A DNA stretch of 64,000 bases from an uncultured Bacteroidota bacterium (GCA_937124965.1 CAKZLB010000016.1:24712-88711), one strand, 5' to 3'; shown: positions 1 to 12,422, numbered from the stretch's first letter. Translations and numbers: made by a program. The notes: generated by a model from the sequence alone, not told the origin.

Positions 1-793
1 GATCAGTAAGGTAAACATGATTGACGCTCAAGAGGAAGTAATTTTGGCACAACGAATCCGGGAAGGCGATCAAGCTGCATTGGAGAAATTAGTTAATGCC
101 AATCTGCGATTTGTGGTATCTGTATCAAAGCAATATCAAAACCAAGGGTTAACCTTGGGTGATTTAATAAACGAAGGAAATCTTGGACTAATCAAAGCGG
201 CAAAACGTTTTGATGAAACTCGTGGTTTCAAGTTTATCTCATACGCTGTTTGGTGGATTCGTCAAAGCATTCTTCAAGCATTAGCTGATCAATCAAGAAT
301 TGTTCGATTACCTCTAAATAAAGTAGGTTCTATCGGTAGAATTTCTGCAACTGCAGCAAAGTTGGAGCAAGAGCATGAGCGCGAGCCAACAGCTGAGGAA
401 ATTGCAAAAGCCCTAGACATTCCGGTAACGGAAGTTGAAAATGCGTTCAAGACTTCAGGAAGACATTTAAGTATTGATGCTCCATTAACAGAAGGGGAGG
501 ACAATACATTACTTGGGGTGTTGGACAACAACGACGAGCCAGATCCAGACAATCCATTGTTAAACGAGTCTCTTCAAAAAGAGATCAACCGTGTAATTTC
601 TACACTTTCTGAAAAAGAAAGAGATGTGTTGAAATACTATTATGGTTTAGATGGTGGACCAGCGCATACGCTGGAAGATATTTCGGAAAAGGTTGGTTTA
701 ACACGAGAGCGTGTTCGTCAGATCAAAGAAAAAGCATTACGAAGATTACGTAAATCTTCAAAAAGCAAAATCCTTAAGTCTTACTTAGGATAA
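1..793 (+). CDS. rpoD: RNA polymerase primary sigma factor (sigma-70/RpoD, short Bacteroidetes type). 5' partial: the reading frame is open from the window edge (codons begin at nt 2).
   Basis: Regions 2.1-2.4 ([48 protein letters not shown]), region 3 and region 4.2 ([27 protein letters not shown]) are read directly from the translation. There is no stop upstream of the ATG at 17 in this frame. Confidence 0.9.
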
Positions 794-810: not shown

Positions 811-846
811 GAAAGGCTCAACTTCGGTTGGGCCTTTCATTTTTTG
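811..846. terminator. Bidirectional intrinsic terminator between the convergent rpoD and dinD genes.
   Basis: Stem aggctcaac (814-822) pairs with gttgggcct (827-835), 9 bp with one G-U, around a UUCG tetraloop. A T-tract (ttcatttttt) follows on the + strand and an A/T-rich tract on the - strand. The dinD stop codon lies inside the T-tract. Confidence 0.6.
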
Positions 847-1679
847 TCCTTTTTTATTTCTTTTAGTATTTTCTTTTCCGTACTTCCAATTCTTCTTTGA
901 ACTTTTTTAACATCTTCCGCAGGTGGCAAACGTTCTGGCTTTACCCCTCTTTTAAGTAAGATGTGTCTTACTTCCTTGTTATTATCAATGTGTTCCTTAG
1001 CTATTGGATTATCTCCTATTAAATCTTTGTCCACCACATTATGACTTGTCAACTCCGTTGCGAAATCTTTAGCTTTTATTAGTAGAGTTGGAAGAAAGTC
1101 CGCCAATGGTCTACCAGTCGGTACACCCAATTTGTTTTTCATAAATTGAGTTGTTTTACCACCAAATAAAGCTTTGTCACCCTCTGAACGAATAGACGCA
1201 AAACTTCTATTGTCTACTCCTCTTTCGTAAATAATACCAGATAATTTCTTTTCTGATTTAGATAGTTTTTCTCGAGCATTAACTCTGTCAATATCCAAGA
1301 ACCGTTTTTCGATTAGTTCTTGCTTTCTTGTTTGAACTGCAAAGTAAGTTTGTGCAAAAGCTATTTCAGGTTTTGTTGAATCCCCATTTTGTGCAATTAA
1401 GTAACAGGCATATCTTGTTAATGCAATATCTTGAATTTCTCTTTGGCCTCCTTTTCCAATTTCTATCATTTTGTTGACTTCAACGAAATGATCCGAAGAA
1501 CTTTCACCTGAATTCTCGCAAGCGCTTACCGCTTTTTGAATAATGTTTGAAAAATTACGCCAATCAGTGTAGCCTAAAATATCTTGTGTTTCTCTTGCAC
1601 TCCAGCATTCAAGTCCGTTAAGGTTGTAACAGGCATCTTGGAATTTTTTAAATAATTCTGCTATTAATTCTTTTTTCAT
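837..1679 (-). CDS. dinD: DNA-damage-inducible protein D (DinD)-like protein.
   Basis: 280 aa. The block WSARETQDILGYTDWRNFSNIIQKAVSACENSGESSSDHF...ALTRYACYLIAQNGDSTKPEIAFAQTYFAVQTRKQE matches what I recall of the enterobacterial DinD family (SARxLGxLLGY..ACENSG..DHF..LSRYACYL..QTYFA). This is from memory and not searched. Confidence 0.6.
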   Translation of the reverse strand: MKKELIAELFKKFQDACYNLNGLECWSARETQDILGYTDWRNFSNIIQKAVSACENSGESSSDHFVEVNKMIEIGKGGQREIQDIALTRYACYLIAQNGDSTKPEIAFAQTYFAVQTRKQELIEKRFLDIDRVNAREKLSKSEKKLSGIIYERGVDNRSFASIRSEGDKALFGGKTTQFMKNKLGVPTGRPLADFLPTLLIKAKDFATELTSHNVVDKDLIGDNPIAKEHIDNNKEVRHILLKRGVKPERLPPAEDVKKVQRRIGSTEKKILKEIKKDKK

Positions 1680-2783: not shown

Positions 2784-4373
2784 TCACTCCTTCTCCCAAT
2801 ACTCACTCATTTGAGCTTCGGCTTGACGTATCCAACTATCGTTTTGGATTAACGAGTCTTGATTTATCCAAGTCACTTTGCTATGTCGGGCGTCGGTCAA
2901 CGTTAGTTCAGGAATACTACCTCCAATATATTCTCCTTTATCGCCGGCTTTGGTTACAATGGTACTCAGCCACATAAACCTAGGTTTGCCATCAACTATG
3001 CGAACGAACGGACGACTTTCAGCTGGATAGTTTTTGCTCCAATCATAGTTCTTTTTGCTTTCAATGATTTTAGCCGTAATTGCACTACTTCCGATATACG
3101 AGTCTTTCGTTTTTCGATGGTCAATGAAGTATACTTTTTCGTCAGTATCGCCTGGAATTAATAAGCTCAAACTCAATCCTTTTTTACTCTCTTCGTACGG
3201 TTCTAATCCAAAAAAGTGGTACAACTTTTCATCATTTTTAACCTTAAAATAGGTCACAAATGGCTGTGGGTTTACATCGTTAGGCAATCTTGGGATCCGA
3301 ATATCGCCTTCGTGATAAAAAGGCATCGGTGCAAAAAAACCATTGGAAAAACGGAAGCTTTCGGCAGTAAAAGCAGCCACTCTTCGTGGAATAATATTTT
3401 GACCCTTTAAAAACGCGAACTCAGAAATTCGAGGAACAGAAACATAATCACCTCTACCTAACAAAACACGTTTCCAATACACGTCTTCGTCCCGTTTTTC
3501 GTGAATTACAAAAACACCATCAAACACAGGTCGAGGAAATAAAATTCCTTTCCAACGTACAATCGGTACTACTTGAACCCAGTGTCCATTATTGTCTTGA
3601 AGATATAATGGCGTTGCTGCTTCGCAATTTAAATATTGACTAATGTTAAATCGCTTCGTCACAGAGGCTTCCGTCTTTTTGCTAAACAACAAAAGCTCTC
3701 CAATATCAAAATTGACATCTTTTCTATATTTTCCGGAAAAGACAGGAGCCGGTAAGTTAGACGGCACATGCAAAATTTCGTACATGTTTTTTTGAAACTG
3801 TTGAAGCTTATAAGACCTCGATGGTCCAACGGCGCAACTAAAATAATACTGTCCGTCGTTGCCTCGAATGAATCTTGGCTCTGTAGCATCTTCGGTTTCA
3901 GAAAGTGCTTCTTGGTTTATTAACGTTCGTACCGAATGGATGGGCTGAATCCGTTCAAAATCTGTTTCGGGAAGCTCAGCCAGCGAAACTTTATTGATGG
4001 TTGAATAGTGAAAATACAAACTCAAATATTTGTAGATTCCTGGACCTGCAAAAAACGAAAACGCCCCAAAGCCTATTAACAAAATGGTAGAGAACACATT
4101 CTTCTTTCCTCCACGTTTCGACCACCCCTTAAAATACCAAACCAGAATTAACAAACATACCACAACAAGAAGGGCATACTTTCGGATGCCTAAAACAGTT
4201 GATTGTAACCCTGCACGATTAATGAATAAAAGTGCAACAATTAACAGAAAAAGTACCGTACTCCAAATGGGTTTGCGTTTGAAATAGGTCTTGAGACTCG
4301 TCCATAACTTGGTTCTGATGTTGTAAACAATCCAGTATAGGCGGTTTGTGATTTCTGGTTTAGGCTCTGTCAT
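2784..4373 (-). CDS. Polytopic membrane protein of unknown family: 3-4 N-terminal TM helices plus a roughly 400-aa C-terminal domain. It is the last gene of the candidate operon.
   Basis: 529 aa. Hydrophobic segments include IWSTVLFLLIVALLFI, YALLVVVCLLILVWYF and VFSTILLIGFGAFSFFAGPGIY. There is a 6-nt gap to the upstream gene. Confidence 0.7.
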   Translation of the reverse strand: MTEPKPEITNRLYWIVYNIRTKLWTSLKTYFKRKPIWSTVLFLLIVALLFINRAGLQSTVLGIRKYALLVVVCLLILVWYFKGWSKRGGKKNVFSTILLIGFGAFSFFAGPGIYKYLSLYFHYSTINKVSLAELPETDFERIQPIHSVRTLINQEALSETEDATEPRFIRGNDGQYYFSCAVGPSRSYKLQQFQKNMYEILHVPSNLPAPVFSGKYRKDVNFDIGELLLFSKKTEASVTKRFNISQYLNCEAATPLYLQDNNGHWVQVVPIVRWKGILFPRPVFDGVFVIHEKRDEDVYWKRVLLGRGDYVSVPRISEFAFLKGQNIIPRRVAAFTAESFRFSNGFFAPMPFYHEGDIRIPRLPNDVNPQPFVTYFKVKNDEKLYHFFGLEPYEESKKGLSLSLLIPGDTDEKVYFIDHRKTKDSYIGSSAITAKIIESKKNYDWSKNYPAESRPFVRIVDGKPRFMWLSTIVTKAGDKGEYIGGSIPELTLTDARHSKVTWINQDSLIQNDSWIRQAEAQMSEYWEKE

Positions 4374-4379
4374 ACTGTA

Positions 4380-4895
4380 TTATTTGTCTAAAAAGTCCTT
4401 AATACCTTTTCTCCAATCTTCGTCTTTATCGTCTTTTTTAGGAGGAGACTTTATCTCATCACGCTCAGGTTTGGGTGTTTCGACGTTTATAGGTTTAACT
4501 TCTTTTATATCCGCTTCAATTGCATCAATTTTTCTGAGCGTTTCATTGGCTTTTTTTAAACCTTTAGGTAGTTTATTGGCTATAAATGGGCCTACATAAA
4601 ACCCTATGATTACAGCAACTAAGGCTATCCCACCTTGAAGAAAAGTTATGAGTGGGTTTAGGTTACCCAACCACCAAGTAATGTACATGAAGACGCCTGT
4701 TATTATAATAGCTGGTACAACACGTTTTGAAAAAGGTTGATTGCGAATAAAGGTGTCATCAATGGATGGATGCAACGGATCCTTGTGACTTAAGTCGTAC
4801 CATCGTTTGTACCAAGCTTGTCCTTTTTTATGATCCCATAAAACGAAAAGGATGCCTAAAACTAAACCGATAATGAGCGAAAGTATTGAGTCCAT
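4380..4895 (-). CDS. Small 2-TM membrane protein with a lysine/aspartate/glutamate-rich C-terminal tail. Unknown family.
   Basis: 171 aa. TM segments are VVPAIIITGVFMYITWWLG and GGIALVAVIIGFYVGPFI. The tail is KPINVETPKPERDEIKSPPKKDDKDEDWRK. There is a 2-nt gap to the upstream gene. Confidence 0.65.
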   Translation of the reverse strand: MDSILSLIIGLVLGILFVLWDHKKGQAWYKRWYDLSHKDPLHPSIDDTFIRNQPFSKRVVPAIIITGVFMYITWWLGNLNPLITFLQGGIALVAVIIGFYVGPFIANKLPKGLKKANETLRKIDAIEADIKEVKPINVETPKPERDEIKSPPKKDDKDEDWRKGIKDFLDK

Positions 4896-4897
4896 AA

Positions 4898-6172
4898 TTA
4901 TTGGATTAAGTGATTGTAAATGTCTTTATGTTTCAAAATTTTATCGATAATCCATTGTTGGGTCTGGTCGTCCCACGATTGGTAATCGGTGTAGAATTTT
5001 GATTTATCAAAAAGGTACGTAATAACAGGGTTTGAATCATTGATATTAGACAACATCTTCCAAAGCACTTTTTTGTCACGTTGATTCAGATGACTCTTTG
5101 GATTGAGCAAGTAAGGAAAAAGGGATTGTGGCAAATCATCCGCGTTAATATTCTTTCCATCTCTTACGTCTCCAATTAATCGTTCAAATTCAAAATAAAC
5201 ATCTGGCAGATGCCCGTCTTGGAGTAATTTGTTTATCAGTCCTTTTTTCTGATTTTTATTTAATGAGATGTAATCATACTTTTTTCCTGAAGCGCTTATT
5301 GCACTCAACAGTACCTGCTCTTGCATCAAGTCAAGCATTGCTGGAAACTGGGCGTAAATGCTCAAATCGTTTGATATTAATCCAGCATTGTACAAGTAAC
5401 TCACCAGACTTGGGTCTTTGATATTATACTCTATATGGCCGTGTTTTGTTTCGCCAGAAACACTGGTTTTATTCCCACCATAAACGAGCAAGGGTTTGTT
5501 ATTTTTAAGTTTTTTAAAGACATATAATCCGTCAAAAGCCACCGTATGAAACGTGTCAATTTCATTAAATGGATGCGTCGGAATGTCGAGTTTCATGTAG
5601 CGTAAGTCACCATGTTTTTTGCATGATTCAATAATCTCTTTTCGCAAATCGTCATTCGACCAGGCATTTGGTTTATCGTAAAATTCGCTGATAAGCTCTC
5701 GTTGTTTTTGCGCTGCAAGCATTATTCGATCAACACTGTAGAAATTTACCTTGATGTAATCAATCATTAATAAATCTTGTGGTGATCTATACGCCGTAAT
5801 TTCTTGGTCCAATTCAAACCACAAACCAGATCGCGTAGTAATATCGGTGATTTGGTCTTTATAATGTTTGAATATTTTCTGATGTATTTGTCGATCGAAA
5901 CTATGATACGGCATGTATATAGCGCTATCTTCTTGTTTCGGAGTGATGATAATTCCGTATGGATTGGCAAGTCCATGCGATAAGTAAAAACGGTCATCTT
6001 GTTCTTCTGCAATCTGCGGGCTCCATCCCCAACCATCAATGTGAAACTGTTTTAATTTGGTAGGAGCGAGGCCAATATCTTCCAAGCACTCGTTGTACCG
6101 CTTTACTAACGATGGCGAGTAAATATCCACCAAATTGTGACCAAAAAGTTCGCTTTCGATAAGTTTAATCAT
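4898..6172 (-). CDS. Hypothetical 424-aa soluble protein with no recognised motif. Operon member.
   Basis: Long uninterrupted ORF. It overlaps the upstream AAA gene by 8 nt, suggesting translational coupling. Confidence 0.65.
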   Translation of the reverse strand: MIKLIESELFGHNLVDIYSPSLVKRYNECLEDIGLAPTKLKQFHIDGWGWSPQIAEEQDDRFYLSHGLANPYGIIITPKQEDSAIYMPYHSFDRQIHQKIFKHYKDQITDITTRSGLWFELDQEITAYRSPQDLLMIDYIKVNFYSVDRIMLAAQKQRELISEFYDKPNAWSNDDLRKEIIESCKKHGDLRYMKLDIPTHPFNEIDTFHTVAFDGLYVFKKLKNNKPLLVYGGNKTSVSGETKHGHIEYNIKDPSLVSYLYNAGLISNDLSIYAQFPAMLDLMQEQVLLSAISASGKKYDYISLNKNQKKGLINKLLQDGHLPDVYFEFERLIGDVRDGKNINADDLPQSLFPYLLNPKSHLNQRDKKVLWKMLSNINDSNPVITYLFDKSKFYTDYQSWDDQTQQWIIDKILKHKDIYNHLIQ

Positions 6173-8126
6173 GAATGTTTCCGTTCATTAATTCTTTATT
6201 CGCTTGTTGTTGAATGTACAAACGTTTTGCCTGTTCCTTAATTTCTCTATTTACACCAGTTTGGTTAATTCGAATACTATTTTCTATATAGTTCAAAGCT
6301 TCATACAGTCGGATATCTCCAAATGAAACCCCTTTCATATTCTGCTTCATTAGGTCTTTCAATATGATGATTTTTTTGTCATACGGTTGCGTGAAAAAAT
6401 CATCTTTGTTGCTCCACCAAACCTCTGGTAGGTCAAAATCTATCAATCGAGCGTCAACTGCTTTTTGAATATTTCGAAGATCTCTCGAAGAAAAGAACGG
6501 ATATTTCTGTAACACCGATTCATAAAACTTACCAAAAAATTGATGCGCATCGACATCTACTTGTTTGGATGTGTTATAAAACATTTCTTCAAGTTCTGGG
6601 ATTTGAAACGAGTATTTTGTTTCAACCAACTCGTTGATGGATGCCGCAGCTTGTTGCGCGTCCATGTATTTGTAGTTTTTAGGATCCTGATTGTCAATGA
6701 ATTTTTTATCTAGTTCCGTATATTTCTTCCACCACAAATAATCTTGATCCATGAAATCAAACTCACTAGAAGCACCTTCCATTGATATCCGCATCTGAAT
6801 TCTAGACAGCACCGCCTTATCAATTTGATCCGGAATATTTGTGAATAGACTGATCAAACGATTACCAAGATTTACTGCGTACGCACCTTCAGTATTCCGA
6901 AGGAAAACGCCTATGAATTCTCTTACACCCGCCGAAACACCTTGTCTGGTTCGTTCTTCTAAATTGTTTTCTGCATCATCAATAGGAGCAAAAACAATTT
7001 TATTAGGATCTTGCATTGGTTTAAACCATTCCATTGCTCGTTCTGCAGTTCCACCTTGAAACGTAGAAACGATGGTTTCTGGCAATGGCCAAAAAAGAAA
7101 TGGATATCCTAAATCGTCGCATCGTTCTTGAATTAACGTCGCAGTTGCAGCAATAAGCATACTTTTTCCAGTACCAGGTTTTCCATCGGCCATGGTTATG
7201 GAAGGTAATCCACCAAGCTCATTGATAGGGTTCATTTTTGCATCAAAATCGTAACACAATAACCTCTCTGCATAACGTTTAAAAAGATGTTTCGCCTGTT
7301 TATTAGCTACAATCGCCTCCATTCGAGTTGGATTGAATTGTGTACCCTTCACGGACACAGAAGAGGGCGATTCAAACCCTTGAATAACATATTGCGTTTT
7401 TTCAAGTTTGTAATGGTTTTGGGTAAAAGCTTCCGAATACTTTAATGCATTTTTTCGGAGAATTACTTCTTCCATTATTCGTTCAAAGTATAATAAGGTC
7501 AGCTTTACAAAGTGCAAGTCTGATACAACAACTCCTGAACGCTCTAAGTACGCCGCATAGTAATACATGCTACATTGAATCGCTTTCGAAGGTCGTGTTA
7601 AACTGACCTCAGGAATTCCTGCGAAGTCAATTTGAATAGACGAAACTTCATCCGAGCGATAATCGGCTAGTGCGTATTGAATAAATGTGGAAGCAGCAAA
7701 AAGTAAGATTGCACTTTGTGTTTGACTTTTATCATGAAACTCTGGGAGTTCAGATTGATGCAAACTGCCATTTTTGTTTTTTTGATGAAGCAATTCTAAA
7801 CCACTTGCGTCGCCATATAGCTTGGCAATGTGTTTTCCGATGCTGTAACCTTTGCGTATTGCATTCATTACTTGATTGCTCGCATTCGATAATATCACAC
7901 GATCGTTGCTAATTCGGACCGCCTCTTTTAATACACTCGATTGATCTTCCTGTTGCAAATCCATTGCTTTTGACACATTGGACAAGAAGTTTAAATTGAT
8001 AGCATTTGCACCCGATTTATTGTCAGGCTTCCAACTAACTTGTTTTAAGTACGTGGTAATTTCTTCTTTATACTGATCTAAGTCGTCTTCTTTTATTTTT
8101 AATAAGGATGATTCTTGTTTTTCCAT
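6165..8126 (-). CDS. Classical-clade AAA ATPase with Vps4/katanin/spastin-like sensor region, carrying a roughly 300-aa N-terminal domain of unknown type.
   Basis: 653 aa. Walker A is GKPGTGKS. A Walker B-like motif is KIVFAPIDDAE. The sensor-1/SRH stretch VNLGNRLISLFTNIPDQIDKAVLSRIQMRISM resembles Vps4 (ATNIPWxLDxAIRRRFEKRIYIPLP). Confidence 0.75.
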   Translation of the reverse strand: MEKQESSLLKIKEDDLDQYKEEITTYLKQVSWKPDNKSGANAINLNFLSNVSKAMDLQQEDQSSVLKEAVRISNDRVILSNASNQVMNAIRKGYSIGKHIAKLYGDASGLELLHQKNKNGSLHQSELPEFHDKSQTQSAILLFAASTFIQYALADYRSDEVSSIQIDFAGIPEVSLTRPSKAIQCSMYYYAAYLERSGVVVSDLHFVKLTLLYFERIMEEVILRKNALKYSEAFTQNHYKLEKTQYVIQGFESPSSVSVKGTQFNPTRMEAIVANKQAKHLFKRYAERLLCYDFDAKMNPINELGGLPSITMADGKPGTGKSMLIAATATLIQERCDDLGYPFLFWPLPETIVSTFQGGTAERAMEWFKPMQDPNKIVFAPIDDAENNLEERTRQGVSAGVREFIGVFLRNTEGAYAVNLGNRLISLFTNIPDQIDKAVLSRIQMRISMEGASSEFDFMDQDYLWWKKYTELDKKFIDNQDPKNYKYMDAQQAAASINELVETKYSFQIPELEEMFYNTSKQVDVDAHQFFGKFYESVLQKYPFFSSRDLRNIQKAVDARLIDFDLPEVWWSNKDDFFTQPYDKKIIILKDLMKQNMKGVSFGDIRLYEALNYIENSIRINQTGVNREIKEQAKRLYIQQQANKELMNGNIHD

Positions 8127-8179
8127 GTTTTACCAATATTGACAACTAAATCGTTTGATTTAATTGTCTTTTTTTCATG

Positions 8180-9280
8180 TTATTTATTGTAAACGTAAAC
8201 AGGTGCAGCAAGTCCCTTTAACGTTTCAGGTTCTGTATCGTTCAGGTATTGTAATACATCATGTGACGTAATCATATACGAATGCATATCCGACACCATT
8301 CGATCCATGCATTCTTTATTCGACTCGTCTACATGAAAGATTTGGCGAAGTTCTCCCTTAGACAAAAACGACTTGCTTCGCTTTTCACCTTTAGAAAAAA
8401 CTACCTCTGTTTTGTACGTGATGATGAAGTCATCGTCCGTAAAATGTTTCCTTAGAAGTAGGGAATATTTATGCTTGTCACGTGAATACTTTCCATATAT
8501 AGGCCCAATCTCTATGCGTTTTAACACCTTGGGCATAATGTTTTCGTATGCATTATCAATATCCGATGCCATCACTTTAAGTGGCGCGGAATTATGCGTA
8601 ATTTTCTTCAACGTTTCAACAAAAGCTGGGTCGTTGTCTACACCAGACAAAGGGTCTTTTGAAACCAGTGGGTTGTCAAAAATCATTATGTAGATATATG
8701 GTTTGTTCGTTACACTGTCGTAAGACGCCCATGAATAAAAGAAAGTTCGTGTTTTATGTTCGTCTGTATGTTGATTAAGCAACTCAATGCTACCCGGGGT
8801 AAATTCAGTAAATAAATTACTCCATTGTAATCGTATGTAGTAGCTCGATTTACTTAATTTATTCAGTAACGAAATCGGGTCAGACTTCTTTCGAACCATA
8901 TGGTCTAAGATGCTTTGTTTTAAAGAATCTTTCGATGGCAATTTCGCTAACTCCGCATCTTTTTTGTCAATATCCGCATCCAGCTTCTTAAATTCCATAA
9001 AGTTTGGGAAGCCACTTTCCGTGACGTCCACAAGCATAGAATTTGTCTCGTCGTATGCATACTTTAATCGTAAAGCTTCTATGGAATTAAGATACTTTTG
9101 AGAAAAGCTCTTCAGTGCTTTTATTTCTTTCGAATCTTCCGATGTGAGACTGTCGAACGAATTCAACAAAATCTCCAGACAGTTTTTTACGTAGTTGAAG
9201 TAATCGGAGTATGCGTTCTCGCCAGCTAGAATACTCCGATCTAACTCTGTAAAATGATTGTTTATATCAATGGTCTTCAC
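8180..9280 (-). CDS. Hypothetical 366-aa protein. Operon member, no recognised domain.
   Basis: Long ORF in the same orientation. There is a 9-nt gap to the upstream gene. Confidence 0.6.
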   Translation of the reverse strand: MKTIDINNHFTELDRSILAGENAYSDYFNYVKNCLEILLNSFDSLTSEDSKEIKALKSFSQKYLNSIEALRLKYAYDETNSMLVDVTESGFPNFMEFKKLDADIDKKDAELAKLPSKDSLKQSILDHMVRKKSDPISLLNKLSKSSYYIRLQWSNLFTEFTPGSIELLNQHTDEHKTRTFFYSWASYDSVTNKPYIYIMIFDNPLVSKDPLSGVDNDPAFVETLKKITHNSAPLKVMASDIDNAYENIMPKVLKRIEIGPIYGKYSRDKHKYSLLLRKHFTDDDFIITYKTEVVFSKGEKRSKSFLSKGELRQIFHVDESNKECMDRMVSDMHSYMITSHDVLQYLNDTEPETLKGLAAPVYVYNK

Positions 9281-9289
9281 GTCGTACGA

Positions 9290-10669
9290 TTAGTCCATCA
9301 AGTTATTGACTGAATCATTGGAAGGTTTGTTTGGTGTGCCATTGTCTTTAGGCGCGTCATCGTTGCCTGTCTTTTCGTGCTTAAACGAGAATGTTTCGCT
9401 TACATCAATTCCAAACTTTTTACCATGCTGTTCCATGATTTTAGCATCTTCTTCCTTGTATTTTGCCGTTGCTTCAGCCATTGCTACCAATACTTGATGC
9501 AATTCGGTCATACGTTTAGGATGTTTTTTAACACGTTCAATTCTATCTTTTTCAGAACCGACGAGCACTTTAGCAGCAATCTCAGTTATTTTTTGATCGG
9601 TTTTAACACCAGCTTCTTCATACATCGAAGCAGCTTCTTGCGCTGTTGCCGACTGAATTAATTGCAATCCAGATTCGTATGTTGCAACTCTTTCTTCTGT
9701 ATCACTCTTCAGCTGACCAATAAGCTGTTTAAGGTTGTTCTTAGTTGTGGTTTGAGCCTCAAGGTGGATAACAATTTGATCAACAAATCGCTCTTTTGAC
9801 TGAAAGATTCCCAATGCAATATTGAACTTACCTTTCAGGTCAGACCTACGTTCTTTTAAGTCGGCAACTTTCTTTTCTTGGGCAGTATACTCAGGGCTAT
9901 TGTTTGGCAACTCGGTAAGTTCGGTTTCGGCTTGCTTAAGTTCGTTTTCCGTTTGTTCAAGATCTGCCTTGCGATCTTCCATAATTGTCGCAGCCTTTTC
10001 TTTCGTTTCGAACGCAAGTTCTTTTCTATTTTTAAGTGAAACTATTTGTGCGTCAACATCGATAATCATGTTTTCTACAATACCCACCATGCCTTGTACC
10101 TGGCTGATGATTCGGTTTAGACTTTCTCCGATATCTGCGTTTTTAAGACGATCTCTATAACGTTTTTGAGCTTCTTCCTCTGCAGCTTTTAATGCAGAAA
10201 TCATTTGCTCAAGTTCTTCTTTACTCTTTTTTACTTTGCTGTTTTTGTAACCAAATAAAATATTCCAAGCATTCGACATACCCTCAGCGTCCATCACTTC
10301 AACTTCTGCTTTTTTACGAGCATTGCTGGCGTTTTCTACCAGTTTTTGTTCGGATGCATTAAGTTCTTGAAGCTTCGAAAACTCTCCTCCACAACTATCA
10401 AGCATTGATCGTAAGTGAAGCATTAGTTCTTGTAAATCCTGTTCCGTGGCTTCGACATCGCCATTTAAGGAGTCGAAATTTGCATTGATGATACCATCAA
10501 CAATTTCTTCTGAAGATCTATTTTCTTCAACCGCTTTTTCAATATCGGCTTCTATTTGGTCAAGTTTGGAGGTGATGTCCTCACCTGTTTTTTTTTCAAG
10601 TTTTGCTTTTAGGGTTTCTACTTTTTTTTGATCACCCAATTGGTCTAGCAAATCAAAGGAGTCTGACAT
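9290..10669 (-). CDS. Acidic coiled-coil protein, 459 aa and almost entirely helical with glutamate/lysine-rich heptads. It may be TelA-like or PspA/ESCRT-III-like. First gene of the operon.
   Basis: Composition and heptad-like runs such as KADLEQTENELKQAETELTEL and LKERRSDLKGKF. There are no TM segments. A divergent promoter region lies upstream. Confidence 0.65.
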   Translation of the reverse strand: MSDSFDLLDQLGDQKKVETLKAKLEKKTGEDITSKLDQIEADIEKAVEENRSSEEIVDGIINANFDSLNGDVEATEQDLQELMLHLRSMLDSCGGEFSKLQELNASEQKLVENASNARKKAEVEVMDAEGMSNAWNILFGYKNSKVKKSKEELEQMISALKAAEEEAQKRYRDRLKNADIGESLNRIISQVQGMVGIVENMIIDVDAQIVSLKNRKELAFETKEKAATIMEDRKADLEQTENELKQAETELTELPNNSPEYTAQEKKVADLKERRSDLKGKFNIALGIFQSKERFVDQIVIHLEAQTTTKNNLKQLIGQLKSDTEERVATYESGLQLIQSATAQEAASMYEEAGVKTDQKITEIAAKVLVGSEKDRIERVKKHPKRMTELHQVLVAMAEATAKYKEEDAKIMEQHGKKFGIDVSETFSFKHEKTGNDDAPKDNGTPNKPSNDSVNNLMD

Positions 10670-10695
10670 ATAATTCGTTTTAAGGTTAAGATGCC

Positions 10696-10703
10696 CAAAT
10701 TTA
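10696..10703 (-). promoter_or_regulatory. Candidate Bacteroidetes -7 promoter element TAAATTTG for the six-gene operon.
   Basis: The minus-strand sequence ...ttattaaaTTTGggcatc... lies about 30 nt upstream of the ATG at 10669 and matches the TAnnTTTG consensus. No clear -33 TTG was found. Confidence 0.3.
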
Positions 10704-10924
10704 ATAATTTAAACCTGACATCGATTATTATTTAAAGTTTAAGCCGACAGGAAAAAGGGATTATCGACTAAAAAATAGGGTAAGATTTGATGGTTGTTCA
10801 GTTTTTGTTGATAGATGATAAACGATTACATGATTGACACAGATATAGTTGACGATATTATTAGTTGTACGCGGTCATGCCGGAAAAGTTACATCGTATT
10901 TCGGGTTAAATATTGTTTCTTTGA

Positions 10925-11860
10925 ATGATGATTTCCGTCGTAATACCAATTTACAATGAAGAAGCCAACATCCTGCCCATGTATAAGCGGATGACTGCGG
11001 TTTTTGATAAGCTCAATTTGGATCGAGAATATGTTTATGTAAACGACGGAAGTGCGGATAAAAGCCAAGAAATTCTTATTGAATTAGCCAACGAGCATCA
11101 AGACGTAAAGTATATCAATTTTAGCAGAAATTTTGGGCATCAAATAGCGGTAAGTGCGGGGTTGGAGTTCTCGTCAGGCGATAAAATAGTAATCATCGAT
11201 GCTGATGGGCAAGATCCGCCAGAAGTAATTGAAGATTTATACCTCAAGAGCATCGAAGGATTTGAGGTGGTCTATGCAAAGCGAGCAGAGCGAAAAGGTG
11301 AGTCTGCCATGAAAAAAGCAACTGCGAAGTGGTTCTACCGAATATTAAACAAAATTATTCACTTCGACATCCCGCTAGATACTGGAGATTTTAGAATCAT
11401 GGATCGTAAGATTGTCAACCAATTGTTGATGATGCCAGAGCGACACAAGTTTCTTCGAGGACAAATATCTTGGATAGGTTTCAACCAAACGTATGTAACG
11501 TACAATCGGGAAGAACGCATGAGTGGTCAGACTGGATACAGTTATTCCAAAATGATTCGCTTTGCATTGGATGGAATTACATCGTTTAGTAATTGGCCGT
11601 TAAAAATTGCAACAATCAGTGGGTTTCTATTTTCGTTTATTGGTTTCTTGTTGATTTTATACACCCTGTATTCTCGGTATGTCATCAAAGATTATCAACC
11701 AGGGTGGGCGTCACAAATGGTAACAATGATTTTTATTGGAGGAATACAATTAATAGGAATTGGTATCATAGGAGAATATATAAGTCGGATGAATGAAAAC
11801 ATTAAGAACCGTCCGTTGTATATAGTTAAAGATTCGAATATTCCTCATGCATCAGATTGA
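10925..11860 (+). CDS. Family-2 glycosyltransferase, polyprenyl-phosphate sugar transferase type (GtrB/ArnC/DPM1-like), with two C-terminal TM helices.
   Basis: VVIPIYNEEANI...YVNDGSADKS...IIDADGQDPP are the DXD and GT-A motifs. The C-terminal TMs are ATISGFLFSFIGFLLILY and VTMIFIGGIQLIGIGIIGEY. Confidence 0.85.
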   Translation: MMISVVIPIYNEEANILPMYKRMTAVFDKLNLDREYVYVNDGSADKSQEILIELANEHQDVKYINFSRNFGHQIAVSAGLEFSSGDKIVIIDADGQDPPEVIEDLYLKSIEGFEVVYAKRAERKGESAMKKATAKWFYRILNKIIHFDIPLDTGDFRIMDRKIVNQLLMMPERHKFLRGQISWIGFNQTYVTYNREERMSGQTGYSYSKMIRFALDGITSFSNWPLKIATISGFLFSFIGFLLILYTLYSRYVIKDYQPGWASQMVTMIFIGGIQLIGIGIIGEYISRMNENIKNRPLYIVKDSNIPHASD

Positions 11861-12422
11861 GCCACATTTTCTTTGGCGACATGTTTATAAAGCGAGTAGC
11901 GACCCAAACAGTCCGTTTTATCGAACGCAGTATAGTCAGTTTGAATACACCAACAAAATCTATAACTACTTGGTCCACCCTCAATGGGATTATTTTGGCA
12001 GTGAAACGTTATTGCTAAAAGTTCTTTTTGTAGACTATGATGAGAAGTATGCAATTATTGAAATGATTGGAGAGTGGAACGACGCAATTCACAATGATAT
12101 TGCAGTCTTGAAACGAGAGGTAATTGACGAAATGCTTGATTTGGGTATTGAAAAGTTCATACTCCTTGGGGAAAATGTCTTGAATTTTCATTCTGGAGAT
12201 GATGCTTATTACCAGGAATGGTGGGAAGATACGCCAGGTGGGTGGATTGCCTTTTTACATTTTCGAGATCACATTATGGATGAAATGGAGGCTGCAGGCA
12301 TTGACTCTTATATCAAGTTGGAGGAAGAAGATGAAACCACTTGGTCTTGGAAAACTAAAAAACCCGAGCAGCTATTCGAAGCAGTCGACCAATTGATGAT
12401 GAAGGAGTTGGGAGGGCAATAG
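11847..12422 (+). CDS. Hypothetical 191-aa acidic protein.
   Basis: ORF overlapping the glycosyltransferase gene end by 14 nt. No motif recognised. Confidence 0.5.
   Translation: MHQIEPHFLWRHVYKASSDPNSPFYRTQYSQFEYTNKIYNYLVHPQWDYFGSETLLLKVLFVDYDEKYAIIEMIGEWNDAIHNDIAVLKREVIDEMLDLGIEKFILLGENVLNFHSGDDAYYQEWWEDTPGGWIAFLHFRDHIMDEMEAAGIDSYIKLEEEDETTWSWKTKKPEQLFEAVDQLMMKELGGQ

Follow-up and report, generated by a model that had tools for sequence, protein, structure and literature searches.

A 64,000-nt window of DNA from an uncultured Bacteroidota bacterium (GCA_937124965.1 CAKZLB010000016.1:24712-88711) was analysed, with coordinates counted from its first letter. The window contained a tightly packed operon of six genes on the minus strand, with intergenic gaps of -8 to +53 nt. 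The third gene encodes the ATPase investigated here, a protein of 653 amino acids (aa) designated AAA653 (6165..8126), which starts with ATG and was defined by a Pfam AAA match, an AlphaFold2 (AF2) model and a family alignment. Upstream of it lie the first gene, encoding the 459-aa all-helical protein CC459 (9290..10669; AF2 model, homologues and terminal motifs), and the gene of a conserved soluble protein of 366 aa, g366 (8180..9280; family alignment). Downstream lie the genes of a 424-aa DUF6638 protein (4898..6172; Pfam PF20343), of TM171 (4380..4895), a small protein with three transmembrane (TM) segments in a hydropathy scan, and of TM529 (2784..4373), which has three N-terminal TM segments followed by a large domain of about 410 aa predicted to be periplasmic. 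The start of the DUF6638 gene overlaps the stop of the AAA653 gene by 8 nt, and the operon genes are likely to be translationally coupled. More than 1,700 database proteins matched the AAA653 open reading frame (ORF) and the operon was syntenic in 18 genomes; therefore, AAA653 is no chance reading frame. The ORF and all of the motifs quoted for it in an earlier sequence-only reading of this DNA were present exactly. The closest relatives of the sequence place it in the Bacteroidia.

Pfam analysis of AAA653 matched AAA (PF00004) at aa 315–448 with an E value of 4.7e-9 and 37.2 bits, above the gathering cutoff of 21.2, and the same model matched all 52 family members searched. The AF2 model, built with 52 homologues (mean predicted local distance difference test score, pLDDT, 83), had a classical AAA fold, in agreement with the classical-type assignment made earlier. 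The large (alpha/beta) AAA subdomain was placed at aa 263–452 (6771..7340) by a profile search of the Protein Data Bank (PDB) and by hhalign against E. coli FtsH (probability 97%, E 3.7e-11), and the AAA module starts with a conserved helix, FNxxxxxxIVxNxxAKH.

Conservation was counted in 87 full-length cluster representatives, including Vibrio, Sinorhizobium and phage-like members, and residue equivalences were taken from a HMMER alignment to Rpt4 and the hhalign alignment to E. coli FtsH. The Walker A motif GKPGTGKS (aa 315–322, 7161..7184) had its lysine, K321, in 87/87. In pore loop 1, STFQGG (aa 354–359, 7050..7067), F356 aligned with the pore-loop phenylalanine in the MFVG of FtsH and with the KYIG stretch of Rpt4; this position was Tyr in 37, Phe in 36, Trp in 1, Leu in 9 and Met in 4 members, i.e., aromatic in 74 of the 87, and was followed by Q357 (85/87) and G358 (86/87). 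The Walker B variant VFAPIDDAE (aa 378–386, 6969..6995) carried D383-D384 in place of D-E, the pair being aligned onto the D-E of both Rpt4 and FtsH; D383 was found in 86/87, and position 384 was Asp in 82 and Glu in 5. Sensor 1 and a shortened second region of homology (SRH) formed the stretch TNIPDQIDKAVLSRIQMRISM (aa 429–449, 6780..6842), with N430 of sensor 1 and R442, at the second arginine-finger position, both present in 87/87. The first arginine-finger position, 441, was Ser in 71 (including AAA653), Gln in 14 and Asn in 2 members and was never Arg, while position 440 was Arg in 20/87. R442 was thus the single invariant arginine where the classical AAA SRH has two arginine fingers. The segment AVLSRIQ was two residues shorter than ALLRPGRFD, with a gap opposite LLRPGR of Rpt4 and a consistent alignment to FtsH. 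In the lid motif SSRDLRN (aa 546–552, 6471..6491), R548 was invariant (87/87) and N552 was present in 86/87; in the AF2 model a lid helix begins at aa 547, and R548 was read, from its position, as a sensor-2-like arginine.

AAA653 therefore has the classical AAA motif set of Walker A, Walker B, sensor 1 and pore-loop aromatic, with Walker B in the D-D form. The pore aromatic, the sensor-1 asparagine, R442, R548 and N552 were kept even in members that are only 23–27% identical to AAA653. The sequence-only reading had rightly called the Walker B region unusual, and had named a catalytically dead site as a finding that would count against its proposal. Because the D-D pair is family-wide and some members (5/87) keep D-E, it was considered a conservative variant and not a dead site. 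As judged from this alignment, the nucleotide-binding, hydrolysis-sensing and substrate-threading residues of the family are under strong purifying selection, and since the catalytic and threading residues are conserved family-wide, AAA653 is apparently an active ring translocase.

The region N-terminal to the AAA module was delimited by AF2 secondary structure and profile search as a family-specific domain of aa 1–262 (7341..8126); the orphan N-terminus proposed earlier was therefore retained, while its extent of about 300 aa was revised. The model of this domain showed an alpha/beta unit (aa 8–73) with a disordered loop, a bundle of long helices (aa 81–227) and a beta-hairpin (aa 238–249). 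When the aa 1–262 profile was searched against 1.84 billion cluster representatives, only 171 proteins (representatives of clusters at 50% identity) were obtained; all of the full-length matches were 617–692 aa long and carried the domain N-terminal to the same ATPase. Search of PDB sequences with this profile revealed nothing meaningful, the one match being a designed coiled coil (E 0.0095), and no Pfam domain was found in the N-terminal region of the 52 members. A MIT-like module, which had been suggested for this region, was not recovered: Pfam MIT gave no match at E≤10 in the 52 members, and the N-domain profile found no MIT chain in the PDB. Within the reach of these searches, the AAA653 family alone has this domain, which is a true orphan.

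For placement of the AAA core among the classical clades, NCBIfam, PDB and Foldseek rankings were used as stand-ins for a tree, and these rankings conflicted with each other. In the Bacteroidota-type branch, CdvC was the NCBIfam model matching most members (21/52, best E 1.4e-6, 25–27 bits), ahead of CDC48, although a score of about 25 bits is to be read against the 650-bit cutoff of this model. In the divergent branch (Vibrio, Sinorhizobium, the phage-like contig L022 and others), CDC48, PAN, IteA, FtsH and SpoVK were the top models and CdvC was marginal. A diverse AAA-core profile of 14 members, searched against the PDB, was led by Cdc48, VAT, AFG2 and NVL at about 5e-15 (scores summed over two domains), with TRIP13 at 6e-11 (45 bits) and Rpt4 at 1.5e-9 (41 bits); there was no Vps4 entry among the best 60 matches. 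Foldseek of the AAA653 model against the PDB returned classical AAA proteins only, with Cdc48, Msp1, FIGNL1, Rpt4, FtsHi, AFG3L2, TRIP13 and Drg1 all at E 1e-7 to 2e-6 and 12–18% identity; Msp1, FIGNL1, Vps4 and spastin were present among the PDB matches of AAA653. Pfam MIT, Vps4_C (PF09336) and AAA_lid_3 matched none of the 52 members, and in place of a Vps4 C-terminal helix and lid beta-domain the model had a lid insertion that was mostly coil (aa 473–509) and long C-terminal helices (aa 582–647). The Vps4/meiotic-like character claimed for the sensor region thus held for the short SRH without "PG", which is shared with Vps4 and katanin, but not for a specific clade affinity. On these scores the AAA653 family is most aptly treated as a deep branch of its own within the classical AAA proteins, one that scores with Cdc48, PAN/Rpt4, TRIP13, FtsH and CdvC/Vps4 alike.

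The first gene of the operon does encode a long helical protein, as had been noted when an ESCRT-III-type partner was proposed for the ATPase; the ESCRT-III part of that proposal found no match by profile or fold. The AF2 model of CC459 (pLDDT 75) was all-helical, with very long helices (e.g., aa 180–253 and aa 259–382), and its last 35 residues were disordered. The hydropathy scan detected no hydrophobic segment. The N-terminus carries the motif FDLLDQL, with the related [FL]D..LL.QL in distant members, and the tail in Bacteroidota is of low complexity, rich in Asp/Asn/Ser/Pro, and ends in V(D/N)xL(M/L)D. The termini of CC459 (9290-9325 and 10640-10669) and the C-terminus of TM171 (4380-4420) are similar short acidic-hydrophobic peptides capping low-complexity linkers, and in locus L017 the C-termini of the CC459-type and TM171-type proteins both contain IDK[FV]. 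These terminal peptides may be docking motifs for a common receptor.

Foldseek of CC459 against the PDB gave best E values of 0.03–0.3, for ClyA-type alpha-pore-forming toxins, BAR/F-BAR domains and axonemal coiled coils, and the top 50 contained no ESCRT-III, PspA or Vipp1. Narrow and diverse CC459 profiles found only generic coiled coils in the PDB and no PspA/Vipp1/ESCRT-III chain at E≤10, and Pfam gave nothing at E≤1; neither sequence nor fold similarity thus places CC459 in the ESCRT-III/PspA/Vipp1 family. Alignment of CC459 with E. coli PspA by hhalign scored 28.8 (probability 10%), compared with a maximum of 24.0 in 25 heptad-block shuffles and 14.4 for reversed PspA. In this alignment (CC459 aa 209–308, window 9800-10050) the most conserved stretch of CC459, GKFNIALGIFQSKERFVDQ, was paired with PspA GKLDEAMARFESFERRIDQ. 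This signal is weak and was treated as a lead, not as evidence of homology. Of 460 PspA matches in the plasmid collection, 453 shared 60% identity or more with the E. coli protein and 446 exceeded 90%, so the collection was too uniform to yield a PspA family profile.

The g366 family is marked by the motifs ESGFPN, SWxxYDxxTNxP and PKxLKR..GP. The DUF6638 protein matched PF20343 with an E value of 2.2e-36 and 126 bits, against a cutoff of 27. Pfam and PDB searches revealed no relatives of known structure or function for g366, the DUF6638 protein or TM529, and hhalign among the operon proteins revealed no internal homology. The tail of TM171, predicted to be cytoplasmic from the positive-inside rule, is of low complexity and ends in DWRKGVxDFLDK, which was conserved in 12 Bacteroidota loci. 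TM529 was also compared with DUF2333 as a possible diverged member, with negative results by hhalign and Pfam.

A Bacteroidetes-type -7 promoter box, TAAATTTG (10696..10703, minus strand), lies 27 nt upstream of the ATG of CC459; the consensus of this box is TAnnTTTG. It was identical in L001, L004 and L005, had one mismatch in L008 and was looser in L011 and L016. A scan for sigma-70-type promoters gave a signal at background only. The operon is flanked by housekeeping genes encoding a sigma-70 factor, a GT2 glycosyltransferase, CorC, GltX and a monomeric isocitrate dehydrogenase (IDH). Just downstream of the operon, a gene for a Bro-N domain protein adjoins a full-length sigma-70 family gene (837-1679, minus strand, and 17-793, plus strand); Bro-N domains are often associated with phages or mobile elements.

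By tblastn and profile searches, the gene order CC459-g366-AAA-DUF6638 was syntenic in 16 Bacteroidota metagenome-assembled genomes (MAGs), as well as in one MAG labelled Cellulophaga and one of Candidatus Buchananbacteria. Among related Bacteroidia, vertical conservation covered both the operon and its flanks, with CC459 74–89% identical; in L016, the most distant complete Bacteroidota MAG, CC459 was 74%, AAA 65% and DUF6638 47% identical. The core was also found on 49%-GC contigs, in other metagenomic lineages, and in cultured Vibrio parahaemolyticus, V. vulnificus and Sinorhizobium meliloti, and Shinella and Rhizobium leguminosarum had a full-length ATPase homologue. In every examined locus that retained the upstream sequence, CC459-type and g366-type genes preceded the AAA gene, with g366 (330–400 aa; 324 aa in L022) immediately upstream. 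The DUF6638 gene followed the AAA gene in nearly all loci; L019 (68% GC) had just the CC459, g366 and AAA genes.

The membrane proteins downstream of the core differed among lineages. TM171 and TM529 were found in Bacteroidota, L017, L018 and L030. S. meliloti, L022 and L033 instead had a DUF2333 protein, which carries an N-terminal TM segment, and small multi-TM proteins were encoded in L023, L032 and L033. In L029 (GCA_027484465.1, JAIXSX010000013.1; 9897-12084), genes for a 70-aa protein with two TM segments, a DUF1523 protein and a dynamin-superfamily GTPase lie between the AAA and DUF6638 genes; the closest solved relatives of this GTPase were EHD4/EHD2 (E 1.5e-9) and the Campylobacter (C. 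jejuni) dynamin-like protein (E 3e-6).

In V. parahaemolyticus BM8A (L025), mfd comes immediately after the four-gene core and genes for DUF3592 membrane proteins lie at its flanks; the same arrangement was found on an unrelated metagenomic contig (L031). In S. meliloti Ak57 (L026, 11094-12839) the operon is split by an endonuclease-domain gene and an ISRm16 transposase gene between the AAA and DUF6638 genes. The L026 record is labelled pSymB but is 3.72 Mb long and carries chromosomal genes including tdk, choVWX, fhs and one for a ShmR-like haem receptor, which suggests that it is mislabelled as a plasmid. In S. meliloti 1021 the module would span SMc02729 to about SMc02734; going by the order of the tags and their annotation, SMc02729 would be the DUF2333 gene and SMc02730 the DUF6638 gene, and both were unchanged in arrays of a phosphatidylcholine-deficient mutant (PMC8343143, supplement). 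A ChvI-bound DNA fragment was reported inside SMc02733 (PMC3687685), which from tag order is probably the g366-like or CC-like gene.

The interpretation tentatively favoured, which we hold at somewhat less than an even chance, is that AAA653 is the ATP-driven motor of an undescribed membrane-associated protein-remodelling module, Vps4-like or Cdc48/Msp1-like in its action while standing outside those families. On the inner face of the cytoplasmic membrane, a ring of AAA653 would dock onto the products of the neighbouring operon genes by means of its private N-domain. The pore of the ring would then engage and thread a flexible terminus; the best candidate for this is the disordered tail at the C-terminus of CC459, and the cytoplasmic tail of TM171 is the alternative. 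Threading would disassemble, remodel or recycle a CC459 scaffold at the cytoplasmic membrane, with the TM partners anchoring the machine and connecting it to the periplasm.

Several lines of evidence are consistent with this interpretation. The aligned active-site and pore residues, the confident AAA model and the exclusive N-domain all fit it. Core synteny extends to widely separated genomes, the accessory genes, where present, encode TM proteins, and a dynamin-superfamily GTPase is inserted in L029. CC459 is modelled as an elongated helical protein, and its sole fold neighbours, all weak, are helical bundles that act on membranes, namely ClyA-type toxins and BAR/F-BAR domains. CC459 and TM171 each present conserved peptides at the ends of low-complexity linkers, and the genes are tightly packed behind the -7 box.

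Other observations weigh against it. The aspartate that replaces the catalytic glutamate may slow hydrolysis, and just one arginine finger is conserved. The CC459 fold matches were insignificant (best E 0.03; TM-scores of 0.09–0.42 in the top 50). The invariant polar residues of g366 and DUF6638 could make them enzymes with a role apart from remodelling. Vibrio has a bare four-gene core without an adjacent TM gene, as does, without DUF6638 as well, the three-gene locus L019, so the membrane partners would be dispensable or encoded elsewhere. The substrate of AAA653 is a guess, and the partner interactions are inferred.

A stronger version of the favoured interpretation was considered unlikely. 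It holds that prokaryotes have, beside PspA/Vipp1-ESCRT-III and the bacterial dynamins, a third machine of independent origin for remodelling membranes, and that the module is this machine. With the help of g366, DUF6638 and the TM partners, CC459 would polymerise on the membrane, and a classical AAA unfoldase dedicated to it would recycle the polymer; the module, bacterial and phage-borne, would then be a functional analogue or extremely diverged homologue of ESCRT-III/Vps4.

Membrane-protein extraction or quality control of the Msp1/Cdc48/FtsH type, in which the ATPase would pull the tails of TM171 or DUF2333 and CC459, g366 and DUF6638 would serve as adaptors, appears rather improbable. Motors of these types were among the closest folds of AAA653, membrane proteins are recurrent partners, and the long low-complexity cytoplasmic tail of TM171, with its conserved end, would suit pore engagement. 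However, the ATPase has no TM anchor or protease domain, and the membrane partners vary by lineage while CC459 and g366 are constant, so that the main clients would rather be the soluble proteins.

An anti-phage or conflict module was judged comparably doubtful. CC459 would here be a membrane-damaging ClyA-like effector restrained or activated by the ATPase, and the phage copy would be a counter-measure or serve superinfection exclusion. That copy is on L022 (Logan SRR10367862 contig, 5955-11979), which encodes a CC-like protein of 347 aa, a g366-like protein of 324 aa, an AAA protein of 630 aa, a DUF6638 protein of 354 aa and a DUF2333 protein of 342 aa. Small ORFs running in the same direction are numerous on the contig, and of 10 that were tested, 7 matched PHROG families (E 1e-19 to 1e-50), including QueE-like radical SAM, Thg1, DprA-like and phosphatase families; by its gene content L022 looks like a phage fragment. 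It is so far the single viral case, for IMG/VR and INPHARED contained no full-length family member. The PHROGs search of the operon proteins gave nothing significant, and when the ATPase was compared by Foldseek with the viral structures of BFVD, the matches were to generic AAA proteins only. The patchy spread over distant phyla, in about 171 clusters at 50% identity, would also suit a conflict module, as would the best fold neighbours of CC459, the alpha-pore-forming toxins. The insertion sequence (IS) element and endonuclease-domain gene inside the Ak57 operon, because of which the operon is probably dispensable in that strain, point the same way. The ATPase also had weak similarity to IetA/IteA (NCBIfam IteA, E 2e-8 for the L022 copy). 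However, PADLOC-DB v2 gave no significant system model match for any of the six operon proteins; the best were IetA for the ATPase (E 0.0078) and PDC-S32 for DUF6638 (E 9e-4), neither significant, with nothing for the others. The neighbours are housekeeping genes here, in S. meliloti (tdk, the cho ABC transporter and fhs) and in Vibrio (mfd), the vertical conservation of operon and flanks in related Bacteroidia would be unusual for defence genes, and CC459 has no hydrophobic segment.

A true bacterial Vps4/ESCRT-III system, with AAA653 in the Vps4/meiotic clade, a MIT-like N-domain and CC459 as a divergent ESCRT-III/PspA polymer whose tail acts as a MIT-interacting motif (MIM), was considered very unlikely. 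The short SRH, the frequency of CdvC among NCBIfam matches in the Bacteroidota-type branch, the Msp1, FIGNL1, Vps4 and spastin matches, the CC459-PspA score above both controls and the disordered CC459 tail with its conserved terminal peptide would all fit. Against these, CDC48, PAN, IteA and FtsH beat CdvC in the other half of the family; Cdc48, TRIP13 and Rpt4, not Vps4, lead the AAA-core PDB ranking; position 441 is never Arg; and neither the MIT, Vps4_C and AAA_lid_3 domains nor, for CC459, any PspA/Vipp1/ESCRT-III relationship was recovered in the searches described above. The hhalign probability was low, with the CC459 hairpin tip set against an uninterrupted PspA stretch that is presumably mid-helix, and CC459 is twice the size of ESCRT-III proteins.

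That AAA653 is a nucleotide-binding scaffold with little or no hydrolysis, a switch and not a motor, is likewise highly improbable, for although Asp in place of the catalytic Glu and the absence of Arg from the first finger position would agree with it, five members keep D-E, Asp can serve as a general base, and the conservation of the pore aromatic, the sensor-1 Asn, R442, R548 and N552 is hard to explain without catalysis and threading.

To our knowledge, the classical AAA unfoldases of bacteria are essentially FtsH, the proteasome-related ATPases ARC/Mpa and Cpa, and a few defence ATPases. The AAA653 family stands beside these as a separate conserved family with a private, putatively substrate-recognising domain and a fixed set of uncharacterised partners. 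In Pfam, NCBIfam and PDB searches, three of the partners had no detectable relatives outside the module, the exceptions being DUF6638 and DUF2333, both of them families listed in Pfam without an assigned function. In the literature searchable by full text, no paper mentioned DUF6638 and a single, unrelated one mentioned DUF2333. CC459-g366-AAA-DUF6638 is also absent from the systematic PSP/ESCRT surveys, in which different associations of bacterial AAA+ proteins are described. The module around AAA653 is previously undescribed. The repeated recruitment of membrane proteins and of one dynamin-superfamily GTPase points to an unexplored membrane or envelope process, and its presence in V. parahaemolyticus, V. 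vulnificus and S. meliloti makes the module genetically tractable straight away.

Ravi et al. (2024, PMC11237479) described operons of bacteria in which the gene of a helical protein that remodels membranes is combined with those of a classical AAA+ ATPase and of TM proteins. Those systems differ in having a bona fide PspA/Snf7 protein with a two-AAA-domain protein, or a MIT-bearing Vps4-like ATPase with a TPR-6TM protein, and none was described with DUF6638, DUF2333 or an AAA653-type N-domain. Like PspA, Vipp1 and ESCRT-III, CC459 is soluble, built of long helices and encoded alongside an ATPase and membrane proteins, and its weak hhalign match to E. coli PspA lies above the shuffles, but it differs in the lack of a profile or fold match, in its doubled length and in its helix lengths.

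Compared with E. coli FtsH, the pore Phe, Walker motifs and sensor 1 of AAA653 align one to one; however, AAA653 has no TM anchor or M41 protease, has D-D and not D-E, and keeps one Arg of "RPGR". Cdc48/p97/VAT, AFG2 and PAN/Rpt gave the best AAA-core profile matches and top Foldseek matches and share the ring-translocase motif set; among the NCBIfam models, CDC48 and PAN scored highest with the members from Vibrio, Sinorhizobium and the phage-like contig. AAA653 differs in having one AAA domain and not two, in an SRH that is two residues shorter, and in that no proteasome genes lie in the operon or its immediate flanks. The Cdc48 N-domain is all-beta and the PAN N-region is a coiled coil plus an OB domain, whereas the AAA653 N-domain is modelled as mainly helical with a small alpha/beta unit. 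TRIP13/Pch2 and Msp1/ATAD1 are, like AAA653, single-ring remodellers with one AAA domain; TRIP13 was the best single-domain PDB profile match (45 bits) and Msp1 was among the best Foldseek matches (18% identity). Their N-domains are unrelated to that of AAA653, and no HORMA-type or tail-anchored client was evident.

In comparison with Vps4/CdvC, the AAA653 family differs in the lack of a detected MIT domain, Vps4_C helix or beta-domain, in Ser/Gln/Asn at the first arginine finger, in the D-D Walker B and in the sensor-2-like lid arginine, and its partner CC459 is not recognisably ESCRT-III. It shares with Vps4/CdvC a single classical AAA module behind an N-domain, the short SRH without "PG", the pore-loop-1 aromatic and a position beside the gene of a long helical protein whose C-terminus forms a flexible tail, and CdvC was the top NCBIfam model for part of the family. 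If CC459 is a polymer recycled by the ATPase, the module would follow in bacteria the same logic as ESCRT-III/Vps4.

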